Below are positions 361-7,346 of a stretch of 7,346 bases of DNA, piece after piece. This stretch comes from a virus (taxonomy: Duplodnaviria > Heunggongvirae > Uroviricota > Caudoviricetes). The stretch spans positions 1-7,346 of the IMG/VR virus record IMGVR_UViG_3300029840_000137; one strand, written 5' to 3'. Each line of letters starts with the position of its first letter. The first letter of the stretch is position 1. Both the position numbers and the translations under genes were made by a program. The notes beneath the pieces are model-generated. The model saw only the letters and a program-made list of their open reading frames with translations, did no database searches and was not told the DNA's origin.

Positions 361-1107
361 TTACTTCGCAATTCCTGGCTGGACGACATTCGGACGCCAG
401 CTCTCCCAGTTAAAATTCACCCATAGCCCGCCGTTCATGGTCATGCGATCCATAATCCGCTCGCCGAGCAATGTTTTCATGGCCTCATAGTTCAGGTTTG
501 TCAGCATCCCCACGCTGCGCATCGACGCTGTCCGGCGATCAACAATCTGGTGCAGTACCACCTGCTCGTTTTTCGTCTCGCGCTGAATGCCAATTTCATC
601 AAGAACCAGCAGATCCACTTCGCACAGTTCCCGCAAAAATTTTTCGCCTGACTGCCCATCGTCATAGCTGGCGTGGAGGGCACTCATAACATCAGCCACG
701 GTAACCACAATCACTGTCTGACCGTCTTTCAGCAGGCGATTCCCGATAGCTGCTGCTAAGTGGTTCTTCCCGGTACCAGGTTTTCCGCTAAACGCGAAAT
801 TTGTGCATCCGGTCATCAGTTCATCAGCTATAGATTTCGCCTGGCTCAACGCGTATCGCTGACCGTCGTTCTGCACCTGGTAATTCGCAAACGAGCATTT
901 ACGGTGCAACGGCTGGATGCCTGAGCGATTCAGAATTTTTTCCACCCGCAACTGGCGATTCAGGCGGTTGATCTCCTCGCTACGTTTCTGGCCTTCAGCA
1001 AGTTGCCACTCGTGCCACTCCGCTACCGTTCTGAATGGGGCGGTTACATGTGGCGGAGCCAGTCTTCGGATACGTTCAAGAACGCCGCCTGCCGCAATGT
1101 TTTTCAT
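361..1107 (-). CDS. DnaC-family replicative helicase loader (AAA+ ATPase), prophage copy of the YdaV type
   Basis: 248 aa with Walker [18 protein letters not shown] and Walker [10 protein letters not shown]. Overall resemblance to E. coli DnaC from recollection. GGGGGTGA 6 nt upstream of ATG. Stop of the upstream initiator gene lies 6 bp away. Confidence 0.9.
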
Positions 1108-1113
1108 GACACG

Positions 1114-2076
1114 TCACCCCCTGAATCCCGGCGGTATTTCAGTGTCCGGTTCAGAAATGTGATTCACGCAACGCTGCGCAGGCGAACGCCCCAGGCGGAT
1201 AACCAGTTCATCCCATTTTTCCCGGAGTTTTGCCGGACTCATGATGTTTTTTACCCAGAACGAATCCCGCTGGAGACGCCCAAACATTTCACAAATTTGT
1301 CTGTGAGTTCTGCCATCCAGCATCCGCATTGTGCGAACGTCATTGGCCCATGCTGTCCAGTTGGGTTCTTTCGGTCTAGTGATCTCGCCATCATAGCTGG
1401 CCGCCTGCTCGTAAAGACTCACGATTCGTCCCCAGATCCACTGTGCGCACACCAAATCTTCCTGACTTCCCCACTGGCGTTTTTTCGCACTGAACACAAC
1501 CGCGTCAGGGTGTCGGGTTAAAAAATCCTGTTCAGCCGTCTGCGGGTCCGGTTGCGAAGCGTCCGGACAAGAAGATCTTTTATCTGACGGATCAGGTTTT
1601 AATACTGACGGATCGGGGTCAATCATCGNNNNNNNNNNNNNNNNNTTTTTATCAACAGTTGATCCATCAAAATTTGACGGGTCAACCGTTGAGGGGTCAA
1701 TATTTGACGGGTCAACTGTTAACGGGTCATTTTTTGCCGGGCTAATTTTTCTTTTCGGTTTATATGACTCACGCGCCGCCGCCGCAGCTGCTTCGAGTTT
1801 TTCCACATTAAGCCGATAGATATTGCTTACATTACGCCCACCGACCTTACGCTCTTCCTTCGTCAGCCAGCCCTCTTTCGCCAGTTCTGCAATAGCCGAT
1901 TTCACTGTGGATTCACTTCTTGCACCGATCTGACGCCGGATAGTTTCAATGGCAGGCCATGACACGCCCTCGTCATTGCTGTAGTCTGCAAGACGGGCCA
2001 TAACCGCCACCCTGGATAAGATCATGCCGGTGAAGGCGCACCCTTCCCAGACAAGACCATGAAGCTTGCTGCTCAT
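1114..2076 (-). CDS. Phage replication initiator (lambda O-like / YdaU-like) with internal origin iterons; interrupted by a 17-nt N run
   Basis: Long minus-strand ORF directly upstream of the dnaC-like gene. N-terminal domain looks like a winged-helix DNA-binding domain. Central DPS-rich repeats (DPSTVDPSN, DPSNIDPS) are encoded by the iteron DNA. ATG at plus 2074-2076 follows GGGGG plus 4 nt; the track's longer frame begins at a GTG at 2091 with no Shine-Dalgarno. Confidence 0.8.
   Translation of the reverse strand: MSSKLHGLVWEGCAFTGMILSRVAVMARLADYSNDEGVSWPAIETIRRQIGARSESTVKSAIAELAKEGWLTKEERKVGGRNVSNIYRLNVEKLEAAAAAARESYKPKRKISPAKNDPLTVDPSNIDPSTVDPSNFDGSTVDKXXXXXXXMIDPDPSVLKPDPSDKRSSCPDASQPDPQTAEQDFLTRHPDAVVFSAKKRQWGSQEDLVCAQWIWGRIVSLYEQAASYDGEITRPKEPNWTAWANDVRTMRMLDGRTHRQICEMFGRLQRDSFWVKNIMSPAKLREKWDELVIRLGRSPAQRCVNHISEPDTEIPPGFRG
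1585..1735. repeat. Iteron array, putative prophage origin of replication, inside the initiator gene
   Basis: GGGTCA cores at 1679, 1694, 1709 and 1724 give an exact 15-bp period (gacGGGTCAaccgtt, gagGGGTCAatattt, gacGGGTCAactgtt, aacGGGTCAtttttt). Related ctGACGGATC units at 1585-1618 and the palindrome TCAACAGTTGA at 1652-1662. Four GATC sites within 1576-1664. T/A-rich tract 1730-1770 immediately adjacent. Confidence 0.7.
1629..1645. other. Run of 17 ambiguous bases (N): assembly gap or masked sequence
   Basis: Literal n characters at 1629-1645, inside the iteron region and the initiator ORF (seven X codons in the track translation). Confidence 0.95.
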
Positions 2077-2789: not shown

Positions 2790-2889
2790 AGCTACTCCTT
2801 AGTAAACACAGCAAAGAATACCCACAGGTAAACAAAAGTCAATACCCACAGGTTGTTTACCTTGCGGTAATCGCATCTATTATTTACCT
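2790..2889. promoter_or_regulatory. Divergent switch region: PR-like promoter for the cro-like gene (minus), PRM-like leaderless promoter for the repressor (plus), direct-repeat operator candidates
   Basis: Minus strand: -35 TTGACT (plus 2837-2842), 16-nt spacer, -10 TATTCT (plus 2815-2820). The 12-bp direct repeat AATACCCACAGG (plus 2817-2828 and 2841-2852) overlaps the -10 and the -35. Inverted repeat GGTAAACAA/TTGTTTACC at 2827-2835 and 2853-2861. Plus strand: TATTAT at 2878-2883 sits 6 nt before the repressor ATG, which has no Shine-Dalgarno. Confidence 0.55.
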
Positions 2890-3309
2890 ATGGACAAATA
2901 TGAATTTAGACGACAGCAACTCATCAAAATTCGTGATGAGAAATGCGATGGTAAAGCGGTTAACGTGGCCAGAAAGATCGGGCGCGAGCCTTCTTATGTA
3001 TCAAGAATGTTGTACCCAGAGGGGAAAAAGGGAAAAAAACGGATCGCTGATGATATGGTGGAGATTATCGAAGAGTCCTTTGGGTTACCCCGGGGATGGA
3101 TGGATGGTATCGTTTCATCATCAACGAACACAGCCTCCAGTTATGAAACAAGGGTTCTAACGCCACGACAACGTATTTTTTTAGATCTCTTAGACGAACT
3201 GCCAGAAAGTGAAGCGGATAAATTATTAAAAACTCTTGAAGAGAAAAAACAGTATTACAATATGATCTACGAAGAAATCCGTAAAAAGAAAGCACAAAAC
3301 GCATCATAG
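2890..3309 (+). CDS. CI-like prophage repressor (HTH DNA-binding protein), probably translated from a leaderless mRNA
   Basis: 139 aa. HTH-like segment (VNVARKIGREPSYVSRMLYPEG). Divergent to the cro-like gene. No Shine-Dalgarno; candidate -10 directly upstream. Confidence 0.75.
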   Translation: MDKYEFRRQQLIKIRDEKCDGKAVNVARKIGREPSYVSRMLYPEGKKGKKRIADDMVEIIEESFGLPRGWMDGIVSSSTNTASSYETRVLTPRQRIFLDLLDELPESEADKLLKTLEEKKQYYNMIYEEIRKKKAQNAS

Positions 3310-3349: not shown

Positions 3350-3390
3350 TTTACCCATGGGTATTTACTTTTTAAATACCTATGGGTATC
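3350..3390 (+). promoter_or_regulatory. PL-like early promoter with two palindromic operator sites
   Basis: -35 TTTACC (3350-3355), 16-nt spacer, -10 TTAAAT (3372-3377). Perfect palindrome TACCCATGGGTA (3352-3363) overlaps the -35. Near-palindrome ATACCTATGGGTAT (3376-3389) overlaps the -10 and start. Half-site ATACCCA is shared with the direct repeats in the divergent region. Confidence 0.5.
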
Positions 3391-3493: not shown

Positions 3494-3727
3494 ATGACGG
3501 CAGGGTTCAACTTTAATAACTATGCAGCAGGTTTTTGTTCCGCTACCCCGGCGTTAAGGGGAAATGAGGTCAACATGGATATGCTCAATCTTGGCAACAA
3601 CGAATCTCTGGTATGTGGCGTGTTCCCCAACCAGGACGGCACGTTTACCGCGATGACGTATACCAGAAGCAAAACGTTTAAAACTGAAGCTGGCGCGCGT
3701 CGCTGGTTAACCAGAAACACTGACTGA
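3494..3727 (+). CDS. Small hypothetical early protein (77 aa; alternative start at 3575 gives 50 aa)
   Basis: First ORF downstream of the PL-like promoter. GAGG 9 nt upstream of ATG 3494; GAGG 5 nt upstream of the internal ATG 3575. Sits where the small ydaF/ydaG-type ORFs lie in Rac (from memory). Confidence 0.55.
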   Translation: MTAGFNFNNYAAGFCSATPALRGNEVNMDMLNLGNNESLVCGVFPNQDGTFTAMTYTRSKTFKTEAGARRWLTRNTD

Positions 3728-3738
3728 TGAGGTTGACG

Positions 3739-4140
3739 ATGGAATTTAAAGATTTACCAGTACCATTCCAGGAAATGGCATCGAATGTGGTTCGCTCTCA
3801 ACTGGCGACTCTTGACCTGAGTACCGTAGAAAAAGAAACCATCGATACTATATCCGGTAACGTGCGTCGTGCCTTTATAGGTCTGTATGAAGAGAAGCGC
3901 CTATTCGGCGGACAGAATTCGCCTGAAAACAAGAATCAAGCAAATGATGAGAAGCTGAAACACATTATCGCCTTACTTTTGGAAGACGCAAAACGTCTAC
4001 AGCAACTGGAACCAAATGCAGGCACAGAGGCCCGCATTTGGATTGCCATGAAATCACTCAAATGTGAAAGCAGTGATTATTTCAAAACAACAATTAAAAC
4101 TACTCAACTTTCGGGAGAGCTACTGAAGAAATTGCCATAA
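3739..4140 (+). CDS. Hypothetical early protein (133 aa from ATG 3739; track frame opens at 3727)
   Basis: GAGG 6 nt upstream of ATG 3739. The ATG at 3727 overlaps the upstream stop (TGATGA) but has no Shine-Dalgarno. No domain recognised by eye. Confidence 0.55.
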   Translation: MEFKDLPVPFQEMASNVVRSQLATLDLSTVEKETIDTISGNVRRAFIGLYEEKRLFGGQNSPENKNQANDEKLKHIIALLLEDAKRLQQLEPNAGTEARIWIAMKSLKCESSDYFKTTIKTTQLSGELLKKLP

Positions 4141-4378
4141 GAGCATGGTCTTTCTCTTGTTCTGCAAGATGAGCATTAATACCTGGTATGGTTTTTTCAA
4201 ATTTATCTATCTGTTGAATAACAACTTCGCGGTATACGTTTGTTTTTGTACCACCAAGCGCAGCCGTTAATGCAGAAAGCATATTTAGTATCATATCAGT
4301 GCGATATGAAAGAATCCTGATAGCTTCATCTTGTTTTTCAATAATAGATTGCAGGGCCTCAATTTGCTTTTTATCCAT
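4100..4378 (-). CDS. Hypothetical small protein (92 aa from ATG 4378; track frame extends to 4417), oriented against the early-left operon
   Basis: Strong AGGAGGG 4 nt upstream of the ATG at plus 4376-4378; the 4417 start has no Shine-Dalgarno. AT-rich. The 3' end overlaps the convergent plus-strand ORF by 41 bp. Contains a short hydrophobic stretch (MILNMLSALTAALGG). Confidence 0.5.
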   Translation of the reverse strand: MDKKQIEALQSIIEKQDEAIRILSYRTDMILNMLSALTAALGGTKTNVYREVVIQQIDKFEKTIPGINAHLAEQEKDHALMAISSVALPKVE

Positions 4379-4612
4379 TTCACCCTCCTGAGGGTTGGTA
4401 ATTAAGGAGTTCTCCACGGGTCAGGTGGAGTGCGTGCGCCGGACACGGGTGAACATCCGGCACTGACAGTTTACTGAAAGGATATGTCCCTGAAAAGTCA
4501 GGGCATAACGCGAAAGCGCACGGCGAAATTGGTCTCTCTGTACGGTGTCGTTAAATTTAGTTCGACCGTGCGCTTCCGGTTGTGAATAACAACATTGCTG
4601 TGTGTAGCCCTT

Positions 4613-4829: not shown

Positions 4830-5051
4830 ATGATTGCTCATCACTTCGGAACTGATGAAATACCACGTCAGTGCGTGACGCCTGGCGATTATGTTCTTCA
4901 TGAAGGTCGGACATATATCGCTTCAGCAAACAATATTGAAAAGAGAAAACTCTATATTCGTAACTTCACAACAAAAACATGCATTACCGACTGCATGATT
5001 AAAGTTTTCATCGGGCGCGATGACTTACCCGTAAAAGCAGCGTCGTTGTGA
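4830..5051 (+). CDS. kilR: KilR-like cell-division inhibitor (73 aa from ATG 4830; track frame opens at GTG 4812)
   Basis: GGAG 6 nt upstream of ATG 4830. The 73-aa length matches Rac KilR and the position between the immunity region and recE is as in Rac. Identity rests on recollection of [10 protein letters not shown]... and on context. Confidence 0.6.
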
Positions 5052-5134: not shown

Positions 5135-5521
5135 ATGAAAGAACTTGCGCAAAATGAAATATTTTCCGAAACCAGTCCTGATGCAATAAATGAAGTCAAA
5201 GAAATTGCAGAACGCATCAGTAAAATATGCAAAGAATACAAAATCGACTTTGTATTTTCTTTTTCAGTACTTACAGAAGTTGGAAATAACGAATATAAGG
5301 ACAGTCGTTTTGTTTTATGTGGGTTAAATGGCAAAACACCAAGCCCATATATTCATGCTGCATGTGAAGTCGTCAGAAGCAACATTGGAGCACAACAAAT
5401 CCATACACTGGCGCAGGCTCTTGAGTTTGCAAGAGAAAATTCTGAGTGCGACTGCCCTGAATGCCAGCACGAAAAGGGAAAAACAACTCACAAAACAGCA
5501 AACCAGGCAACCTTCCACTGA
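5135..5521 (+). CDS. Hypothetical protein with C-terminal CxCxxC motif (CDCPEC), possibly YdaE-like zinc-binding
   Basis: 128-aa ORF between kilR-like and recE-like genes, in the slot held by ydaE/racC in Rac. Weak A-rich ribosome-binding region. Confidence 0.65.
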   Translation: MKELAQNEIFSETSPDAINEVKEIAERISKICKEYKIDFVFSFSVLTEVGNNEYKDSRFVLCGLNGKTPSPYIHAACEVVRSNIGAQQIHTLAQALEFARENSECDCPECQHEKGKTTHKTANQATFH

Positions 5522-5628: not shown

Positions 5629-7346
5629 ATGAGCGCTGATAAACAGACTTTTGCACTACACTGCGAAGCAAAAAACGATAAAGTCAGAAAACGCCTTGGC
5701 ATCAAAGGCGGTTTTTTCTGGACCGAGGCCAGAAAACTTTCTGTCGCAGTTTCCCGCTGCATTGCAGCCATGGACGATGCAGGCTACGACGAGGATGATT
5801 TCAAAAAACCCGTTCGCGTAAATTTCCCCGTCGTGAATGACCTTCCACCGGAAGGCGTGTTTGATACTGAATTCTGCAACCGCTATGAAAAAGGCGGGGA
5901 AGATGGCATCACCATGATGGCTATATCCTTCAATGACAACATCAACGGTGAAGATGCCACAACTGCTGGCGATGACAACGATGACCCGGACGGAACTATT
6001 CCGGATGATGTGGAGAAAAGCGAATCCCCGGACAGCGACGATGACTGTTCTGAGTGTGAAACTCCCGTCGCCACTCTGAGCCTTACTCATCGCTTCCTTC
6101 ACCTCTTCTTCTTCAGCAAGGATGAAGATGGAAAATACCGGCATCACGCCACACCAGAACAACGCAATAACGTGATCCGTATGGAGATGGACACAGAGGA
6201 CAGTTACCTTCAGAGCCTGCTTACTGCTGTGCGCGCCGCACATCATGAACTGGATAAACTGACGAACTATCACCTTAGTCGCCTGGCTGAATCTGTAGGG
6301 AAAGCATTCCCCCACTCTGCAAATCATCGCATCAGCCCGGCTGAATTCGACAAGTTCATTTCCACCTGGATGAAAACTGACTACCTTGATCAGGGCCTGC
6401 TGACAAAAGAATGGCAGAACGGAAATTATGTTTCAGGCATTACCCGTACGCCTTCCGGTGCTAACGCTGGCGGCGGAAATCTTACCGATCGTGGTGAAGG
6501 ATTCAAACATGATAAGACATCACTCGCACGAGATGTAGCCACCGGCGTTCTGGCCCGTTCAATGGATGTGGATATTTATAACCTGCACCCAGCACACGCA
6601 AAACGCGTTGAAGAAATCGTGTCAGAGAATAAGCCGCCCTTTTCTGTTTTTCGCGACAAATTTATCGCCATGCCCGGTGGGCTGGATTATTCCCGCGCCA
6701 TTGTGGTGGCTTCCGTGAAAGAAGCACCAATCGGCATTGAGGCCATCCCGGCACGCGTGACTGAATATCTCAACAAAGTGTTGACCGAAACCGATCACGC
6801 TAACCCGGATCCGGAAATCGTGGAAATTGCCTGCGGTCGCTCATCAGCACCGATGCCGCAGCGCGGAACAGCAGAAGGAAAACATGGCGATGAAGAAAAG
6901 CAACAAGCATCGGACACAATGGCTAATGAACAGGCAGCGCCTGAATCAGTGGAAGAAATTCCAGTTAAACATAATGAGGACACGCAATCACTGGAAAATG
7001 TCTCATCTGTAGAAACGAAATACCAGGAACTGAGGGAGGAACTCAATAAAGCCAGGGAAAACATCCCCCCAAAAAATCCAGTCGATGCCGACAAATTACT
7101 GGCTGCCTCGCGTGGAGAATTCGTTGAAGGCATCAGTAACCCTGCTGATCCGAAGTGGGTGAAGGGGATCCAGACTCGCGACACTGAGGACCAGAATCAG
7201 TCCAAAGTGGAACAAATTGCCCCAGAAGCGGGACAAAACAGCCCGGATACGCAACAAAACGGGTCAGAAGAGCAACAGCCAGGGCCAGTAGCGCAACCGG
7301 AGCTGGAAAAAAACTGCCGCGTCTGTGGTCAGACTGGCGGGGGTAA
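5629..7346 (+). CDS. recE: RecE-like protein (exodeoxyribonuclease VIII family), N-terminal 572 codons; 3' end beyond the window
   Basis: Frame open from ATG 5629 to the window end. AGAGG 10 nt upstream. Translated segments ([101 protein letters not shown]) match my recollection of E. coli RecE. Absent from the ORF track because it has no in-window stop. Confidence 0.75.

Follow-up and report, generated by a model that had tools for sequence, protein, structure and literature searches.

Plasmids of the iteron type and the P1 oriR carry repeated sites for winged-helix initiators (RepA/RepE/pi), with GATC repeats in P1. The plasmid iterons, 17–22 bp long and repeated every ∼22 bp (two helical turns), are found outside the rep gene, together with DnaA boxes and AT-rich repeats. 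In bacteriophage lambda, the ori is located within the initiator gene O, as dyad-symmetric repeats in the codons of the interdomain linker. The iterons number four in lambda and six in Stx phages, and the Stx-phage work deals only with lambda-type O proteins and their iterons (PMC7466680). For the Rac prophage, with the genes ydaS-ydaT-ydaU-ydaV, an active origin, oriJ, has been reported (PMC3945230). The domesticated lambda-O-like protein DopC combines an HTH_36 domain with a DnaT C-terminal motif, and no iteron-like sequences were detected at the dopC locus (Brezellec et al., 2017, PMC5509034). The non-lambdoid replication regions of Eru8/Eru11 Stx phages contain YdaT-like and HTH_36 genes; the corresponding paper classifies genes only, describes no origin, and states that nothing is known on the replication of Eru phages (PMC8951638).

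The prophage early region and its initiator

The window analyzed here, a 7,346-nt stretch of DNA, comes from a Rac/lambdoid-type E. coli prophage, of which it covers the immunity and early-replication region. The replication initiator gene is positioned at 1114–2076 on the minus strand as a 320-codon ORF, which near-identical genomes annotate as a CDS of 963 nt; RefSeq places its start at the ATG at 2076, and an in-frame GTG is present upstream at 2091. The product matched PHROG 391, "replication initiation O-like," over its whole length (E 4e-115), while its RefSeq label is merely "helix-turn-helix domain-containing protein." The full-length gene was found in 1514 of 5426 complete E. coli genomes. 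Directly downstream (361–1107, minus strand) is a gene for a DnaC-type helicase loader (Pfam PF01695, IstB_IS21, E 1e-19; PHROG 50), which scored 506 bits against the NCBIfam model PRK12377 (NF009043; cut-off 389) and 310 bits, under the cut-off of 357, against the DnaC equivalog model. Upstream of the initiator, on the same strand, are a YdaT-like gene in the cII position (2099–2524; Pfam YdaT_toxin) and a cro-like gene (2508–2789; sub-threshold YdaS match). The order of the leftward early operon is cro-like, YdaT-like, initiator, and DnaC-like, its upstream part being confirmed by the annotation of near-identical loci, and its transcription, coming from the immunity region, crosses the array of sites described below. 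A repressor gene (2890–3309, plus strand) is divergent from this operon and is followed by DUF1391 and RecE-like genes, and a DUF1627 protein, another winged-helix protein of the window, is encoded at 3–338. An Rfam search gave no match anywhere in the window. A 16-kb circular "plasmid" record built of the early region of this prophage was also noted; it contains homopolymer indels, is possibly an assembly artefact, and gives a weak hint of autonomous replication.

Domain analysis of the initiator revealed an N-terminal winged-helix DNA-binding domain (aa 1–95; 1792–2076, minus strand), with a match to Pfam HTH_36 (PF13730) at aa 25–71 (27.9 bits vs. a gathering cut-off of 25, E 2e-6); relatives of the initiator score 37.6–42.9 bits for the same model. 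This domain is presumed to be the reader of the iterons. It gave no match to Phage_rep_O (PF04492), for which lambda O itself scores 123 bits, and hhalign detected no similarity between it and lambda O (probability 0.2%). A single-sequence AlphaFold2 model of aa 1–100 (pLDDT 54.5) was too poor for a fold search. In the C-terminal half, aa 153–300 (1177–1620, minus strand) align with aa 145–277 of lambda O at 35% identity (BLASTP, E 5e-26), and on this alignment the C-terminal half is judged a true homologue of the P-binding domain of lambda O. The C-terminal tail, SEPDTEIPPGFRG (1117–1155, minus strand), resembles the C-terminal motif of the host primosomal protein DnaT (phmmer E 0.01–0.03 against PDB 2ru8, 6aep, and 9zbt, DnaT C-terminus). 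The linker between the HTH_36 and C-terminal domains is rich in P, S, D, and K.

The gene organization is comparable to that of the lambda early-right operon, where the initiator also follows cro and the cII-position gene and precedes a helicase-loader gene. However, the N-terminal domain is of the Phage_rep_O type in lambda and HTH_36 in the window initiator, the loader is lambda P in the former and of the DnaC/IstB type here, and the window initiator, in contrast to lambda O, ends in a DnaT-like tail. Rac shares the order cro-like, YdaT, initiator, and DnaC-like YdaV, and its initiator YdaU shares the IPPGFRG tail, but YdaU has a DUF1376 N-terminal domain. The two-part architecture of an HTH_36 N-terminus and a DnaT_C tail is shared with DopC, from which the locus differs in its prominent array and in the location of the gene in a prophage. 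Eru8/Eru11 share the YdaT-like gene and the HTH_36 gene beside the immunity region.

Palindromic repeats, GATC sites, and AT content

The hexamer GGGTCA starts at 1616, 1679, 1694, 1709, and 1724, and the last four copies, already recognized in the first-pass annotation, follow each other in exact 15-bp steps. Nine copies are present in the window as against 2.9 ± 1.7 in shuffled sequences, and none of 200 shuffles reached nine. Tandem Repeats Finder reported a period of 15/30 over 1652–1750, and a repeat search yielded five in-register copies with spacings of 15, 15, 15, and 15, along with TGACGGATC units at 1585 and 1606, which are 21 bp apart; both sites in 1585–1615 have the form TGACGGATC(A/G) (n = 2). 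The repeats sit in the middle of the ORF, and the ORF and its translation bore out that they double as DPS-rich linker codons in the center of an O-like gene, the 15-bp units encoding DPLTV, DPSNI, DPSTV, DPSNF, and DGSTV.

Each 15-bp unit contains a palindrome, TTGAC-GG-GTCAA, with the general form YTGA-N4-TCAR (e.g., TTGACGGGTCAA and CTGATCCGTCAG). The repeats noticed at first reading are real, but this 10–12 bp palindrome describes the unit better than GGGTCA does; the GACGGATC units, listed earlier as related, are the same palindromic site with another spacer, CGGA. Perfect TGA-N4-TCA sites are present at 1585, 1660, 1675, 1690, and 1705 and one-mismatch sites at 1606 and 1720, these five perfect and two one-mismatch sites occupying nt 347–492 of the initiator gene. 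Candidate iteron array I (1660–1729) consists of five sites with an exact 15-bp period: TGATCCATCA at 1660–1669, TGACGGGTCA at 1675–1684 and again at 1705–1714, and TGAGGGGTCA at 1690–1699, all four perfect, and TAACGGGTCA at 1720–1729 with a single mismatch. A sixth in-phase unit at 1735–1744 (TGCCGGGCTA) has three mismatches and is a degenerate relic. Candidate array II (1585–1615; coding strand GATCCGTCA) consists of a perfect site at 1585–1594 (TGACGGATCA) and a site with one mismatch at 1606–1615 (TGACGGATCG). The arrays are separated by a masked run of 17 N at 1629–1645, where near-identical genomes have GCCCCCTAATCGGCAGT, which is not a repeat unit. The half-sites are 7–8 bp apart, center to center, and the 15-bp period corresponds to ∼1.4 helical turns; both values are unusual among known iteron origins.

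Comparison of these sites with the described origins revealed a position at the same distance from the start codon as in lambda (gene nt 349–433 for the lambda iterons) and, as between lambda and Stx-phage variants, an iteron number that varies between relatives. The lambda sites are 18 bp long at a spacing of 20–24 bp, whereas those of the window are 10–12 bp long at exactly 15 bp and, in contrast to lambda, contain conserved GATC. Rac YdaU lacks TGA-N4-TCA and has a repeat of its own, TGTTCAAACA, in two copies at gene nt 392 and 425. The combination of a winged-helix initiator with multiple repeated sites is shared with iteron plasmids and P1, and the GATC in the candidate origin suggests Dam/SeqA control, but the 15-bp period, the location inside the initiator gene, and the lack of DnaA boxes and of a strong AT tract set the locus apart from the plasmid iterons.

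Four GATC (Dam) sites, at 1574, 1590, 1611, and 1661, form a cluster at 1574–1664, as the first reading had it, and three of them lie inside iteron sites. The window as a whole has 25 GATC vs. 29.5 expected and is not GATC-rich, so the cluster of four within 91 bp is local. In the GACGGATC units, GATC arises from the CGGA spacer, as GAT-CCG-TCA on the coding strand. GATC is also conserved in the sites across the initiator family, with 10.6 per kb in the linker vs. 3.9 elsewhere and a peak at gene nt 400–520. Its main concentration is in array II, in which GAT is the Asp codon ahead of CCG or CCA; array I sites are mostly devoid of it. An N6-adenine methyltransferase gene (PF02086 or PF05869) was found at most 1.8 kb downstream of the initiator, on the same strand, in 51 of 85 family loci. 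The conserved GATC and the downstream methyltransferase genes suggest control by methylation.

The tract at 1730–1770, T-rich on the plus strand and encoding YKPKRKISPAKN, had been put forward as the unwinding element. This proposal did not hold up as the tract is 66% AT, is not conserved (33–53% AT in the closest relatives), and is equaled or exceeded in AT content by ∼10% of all 41-bp windows of the 7.3-kb sequence; relative to the gene, it is found on the N-terminal side of the array, whereas the lambda tract is on the other side. The likeness to a lambda-type ori within O proposed at first reading stands for the array in the initiator gene and the homologous C-terminal domain, but not for the placement and strength of the AT tract. 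The AT profile averaged over the family showed no tract of ≥75% AT, and the best 40-bp windows reached 66–72% vs. 80% in the lambda tract; a strongly AT-rich tract of ∼40 bp on the C-terminal side of the sites was not found. The sole recurrent AT-richer DNA in the family (66–72%) lies around the last GATCCGTCAG site, corresponding to 1567–1606 in the window (68% AT), which is a candidate for an alternative location of strand opening. No DnaA boxes were found, and no TTWTNCACA is conserved in the family; TTATCAACA at 1648–1656, read by eye as a DnaA box with one mismatch, was rejected as it is not conserved in the family. An intragenic promoter formed by the TTGAC repeats was likewise discarded since relatives have CTGAC and a scan of 1100–2800 gave no promoter-like site.

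Conservation of the sites and inheritance with the N-terminal domain

Relatives of the N-terminal domain were collected from eight phage records (SfIV, Klebsiella Kp4866-6 and Kp4871-1, 733R5, Yersinia YeP1, LLS, an Stx2a phage, and a Pseudomonas phage), with 31–54% identity across the N-terminal domain and linker, and from 80 further loci in more than 30 enterobacterial genera. Comparison with the initiator genes of related prophages, a check proposed in the first-pass annotation, showed that all enterobacterial relatives have an array of 15-bp repeats at the corresponding place in the gene, and the YTGA-N4-TCAR core is common to the whole family, contrary to the earlier view that the iteron was specific to this element. 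The density of TGA-N4-TCA is 4.6 per kb within 88 related initiator genes vs. 0.34 per kb in the flanks, and nearly all matches in the related genes fall at gene nt 290–490. Spacings between successive sites are exactly 15 nt in 163 of 250 cases. Almost every relative has GATCC(G/A)TCAG at the array II position, even where the C-terminal domain is a different one.

The peptides encoded by the arrays of the relatives differ (SDPSK, SDASK, SDTSK, FEGSK, SEPSK, and others). Positions 1, 3, and 5 of the unit are highly variable (S/F/G/P/T/I/V, P/A/T/G, and K/V/E/D/N, respectively), and the 4-bp spacer varies, also within a single array, while the half-sites are kept. Copy number differs between close relatives by whole 15-bp units. 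For an analysis of serine codons, units were chosen by the protein pattern [DE]-x-S in the linker alone, so the test is not circular. The serine of these units is encoded by TCA in 486 of 559 cases (87%), as against 464 of 2492 serines (19%) elsewhere in the same genes. Among 22 representatives less than 85% identical, the corresponding counts were 115/128 and 115/622, and the pairwise identity at third codon positions was 0.86 at the unit serine vs. 0.30 at conserved residues of the N-terminal domain. Randomization of synonymous codons in these representatives gave 5.8 ± 2.4 motifs, whereas 76 were observed; for the linker of the window gene, 0.35 perfect sites were expected and five are present, a number reached in none of 5000 randomizations. 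Synonymous sites are conserved while amino acids vary, which places the constraint on the DNA. Judged from these comparisons, selection acts on the repeats as DNA and is not accounted for by the protein sequence; the peptide of the linker simply follows from the sites. Conservation at the protein level only, which the first-pass annotation had named as evidence against an origin, was not what was found.

All 85 relatives of the N-terminal domain carry the TGA-N4-TCA motif, irrespective of the C-terminal domain to which they are joined; no fewer than three such C-terminal domains occur in the initiator family, with both arrays kept. Three genes with a lambda-O-like C-terminal domain and another N-terminal domain, namely, Rac ydaU, lambda O, and L093 (RefSeq "phage replication protein O," whose N-terminus bears no relation to the window initiator family), have zero TGA-N4-TCA sites, and each has its own, different repeats at gene nt 350–450. 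In E. coli genomes, similarity to L093-type genes ends at ∼1581, a mosaic junction right beside the last site. The neighboring genes vary among the family loci, with YdaT or DUF4222 upstream and a DnaC-like, methylase, or PerC-like gene downstream; the DnaC-like loader gene is present at only 6 of 85 loci, and the N-terminal domain alone is constant. As far as sequence comparison can tell, the sites are inherited together with the N-terminal domain rather than the C-terminal domain. This is the classic lambdoid arrangement, in which a DNA-binding domain and its cognate iterons form a module and the C-terminal domain attached to it is exchangeable.

A candidate replication origin and the competing explanations

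The region 1585–1729 is most likely the initiator-bound replication origin of the prophage, located among the linker codons of the initiator gene. The reading as iterons inside the initiator gene is supported by the sequence comparisons above, the agreement in gene position with the lambda iterons among them, and we infer binding, unwinding, and origin activity from lambda ori and O. In the proposed mechanism, dimers of the winged-helix domain of the initiator would bind seven or eight palindromic sites (an example of a site for the N-terminal-domain dimer is TTGACCCGTCAA), and the dimers on these sites would build up a nucleoprotein complex resembling the O-some. Recruitment of host DnaB, via the DnaC-type loader of the prophage, would then fall to the lambda-O-like C-terminal domain together with the DnaT-like tail. 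Firing would probably be modulated by early-operon transcription through the array and, with SeqA, by Dam methylation of the GATC inside the iterons. Neither binding nor replication data on members of the initiator family turned up in the literature searched.

A different view of the repeats would be that they are only a low-complexity protein linker of DPS-type pentapeptides generated by replication slippage, the DNA likeness of the units reflecting recent duplication. The units are indeed in frame (15 bp being five codons), close relatives differ by whole units, and the linker is P/S/D/K-rich. However, half-sites and the TCA serine are kept where amino acids vary (87% vs. 19%), the motifs far exceed the number given by synonymous randomization (76 vs. 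5.8), spacers differ within one array with conserved arms, and the palindromy has no rationale at the protein level, making this explanation very improbable. Constraint on the DNA could also stem from another factor that is unrelated to the N-terminal domain of the initiator, such as Dam/SeqA, a host regulator recognizing TGA-N4-TCA, or another phage protein. The GATC conserved in array II and the methyltransferase gene that follows the initiator in 51 of 85 family loci are compatible with such a target, and the window encodes further winged-helix proteins, e.g., the DUF1627 protein at 3–338. Most array I sites, however, are without GATC, the neighboring genes differ among family members while the N-terminal domain alone is constant, and the motif is gone where that domain has been replaced. 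The consensus half-sites of FNR and CRP are spaced by N6; host sites of this type were rejected as the spacing here is N4, and the operator-like palindromes of the prophage itself differ in sequence from TGA-N4-TCA. Recognition by a factor other than the initiator is accordingly considered quite unlikely, though less so than the slippage explanation.

Sites bound by the initiator need not mark the point of initiation, and they might serve autoregulation, copy-number control, handcuffing, or an operon roadblock, with initiation elsewhere in the prophage. Plasmid iterons act in both origin and control, as in P1 incA, RK2, and F, and the arrays are without a strong AT-rich unwinding element alongside. 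Against a purely regulatory role are the gene position, which is the same as that of lambda ori; the flanks, which hold no second cluster of the motif (0.34 per kb being background); and the co-inheritance of the module, as expected of an origin and initiator pair. This alternative is rated as unlikely, although less remote than a foreign factor. Only slightly more credit, and still the status of a minor possibility, is given to a distinct type of origin, characterized by dense 10–12 bp palindromes, a 15-bp period, absence of an AT-rich element, gating by methylation, and a DnaT-mimicking tail. In such an origin, adenine methylation of GATC in the conserved terminal iterons would gate firing, which would explain the N6-adenine methyltransferase gene after the initiator in most family members; the helicase would be recruited by the DnaT-mimicking tail and not by a partner of the lambda P type, and the 15-bp period would place successive sites on nearly opposite faces of the helix.

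The array of the window is, on well-supported grounds, a new member of the lambda-type group with the origin inside the initiator gene, with some variant features. No description of this origin was found in the literature searched, where an earlier passing mention is possible; an origin is not discussed in the SfIV paper. Relatives of the initiator are carried by serotype-converting phages of Shigella, by phages of Klebsiella and Yersinia, and by at least one Stx2a phage (L010). As the family is very common and uncharacterized, the finding is useful, though unsurprising to a specialist. The locus also offers a clean and quantifiable case of dual coding, the codons of a tolerant linker being set by protein-binding sites. 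The candidate origin and its recognition motif offer a handle for the construction of mini-replicons and, because the core motif is common to the whole family, for predicting which co-resident prophages are incompatible in replication or cross-activate one another. They may likewise serve replication studies of Stx phages, in which toxin expression depends on phage replication (PMC7466680).

Probable iteron array and motif copy at the gene junction

The size of the iteron array in the initiator gene was found to differ among close relatives in steps of whole 15-bp units. Strain 2022H048 (comparison record L002, around position 3590) carries one unit fewer than the window, namely, the counterpart of 1702-1716, and the arrays of two Edwardsiella species (L017 and L019) consist of 6 and 9 units. 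The run of 17 N within the initiator gene (window 1629-1645) is database masking and not biology; near-identical genomes read GCCCCCTAATCGGCAGT at this position. A further perfect TGA-N4-TCA match, TGACACGTCA, lies at window 1107-1116, across the stop codon of the initiator gene and the start codon of the loader gene. It is probably a chance occurrence, as the TGA stop is itself part of the motif; a gene-end match is also present in a few relatives.

Initiator genes with other N-terminal domains and the downstream gene

Short repeats were also observed in initiator genes with other N-terminal domains. The ydaU gene of Rac (L004 4120-4977) contains two copies of TGTTCAAACA, and the initiator gene of L093 (2499-3464) contains three copies of AGGTCAAAATGA/GGTCAAAATG. 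These repeats occupy the same position in the gene as the window array, with sequences of their own. Judged from sequence, they are candidate iterons of the Rac ydaU and L093 modules, respectively, and such repeats could perhaps serve as candidate iterons for Rac oriJ too. In 51 of the 85 loci sharing the N-terminal domain of the window initiator, a majority, the initiator gene is followed on its own strand by an N6-adenine DNA methyltransferase gene, e.g., L007 3481-4290, L008 3977-4690, and L009 3352-4239. These methyltransferases are of the D12 class or the phage Dam type. The prophage of the window has the DnaC-like loader gene in their place.

Immunity region, remaining ORFs, and a circular relative

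Four operator-like 11-12-mers, TACCYAYRGGT, are located at window 2819-2853 and 3352-3388 (six strand-matches observed against 0.01 expected); one pair is found in the interval from the cro-like gene to the repressor gene, and a second pair, both members of which are palindromic, just downstream of the latter. They bear no relation to the iteron motif. In the long ORF at 5629-7346, which is cut off by the right edge of the window, the N-terminal part gave a match to exonuclease VIII (RecE; PF06630, E 3.5e-11), and window ORFs 3739-4140, 4100-4381 (minus strand), 4830-5051, and 5135-5521 had no Pfam match. A circular 'plasmid' record of 16 kb (L095, NZ_CP148542.1) is made solely of one region of this prophage type, comprising the repressor, cro, YdaT, initiator, and DnaC-like genes through Q to the lysis genes. 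Its initiator gene is nearly identical to that of the window, homopolymer indels excepted. Possible explanations of the record are a lambda-dv-like replicon, over-replicated prophage DNA, and an artefact of assembly.

DnaT-like tail of the initiator

The initiator ends in SEPDTEIPPGFRG (window 1117-1155, minus strand), a sequence almost identical to the motif at the C terminus of the host primosomal protein DnaT (PDB 2ru8, 6aep, and 9zbt). The presence of the same C-terminal tail in Rac YdaU, SfIV gp41, and LLS gp44 suggests that DnaT is mimicked as a route to DnaB/DnaC.
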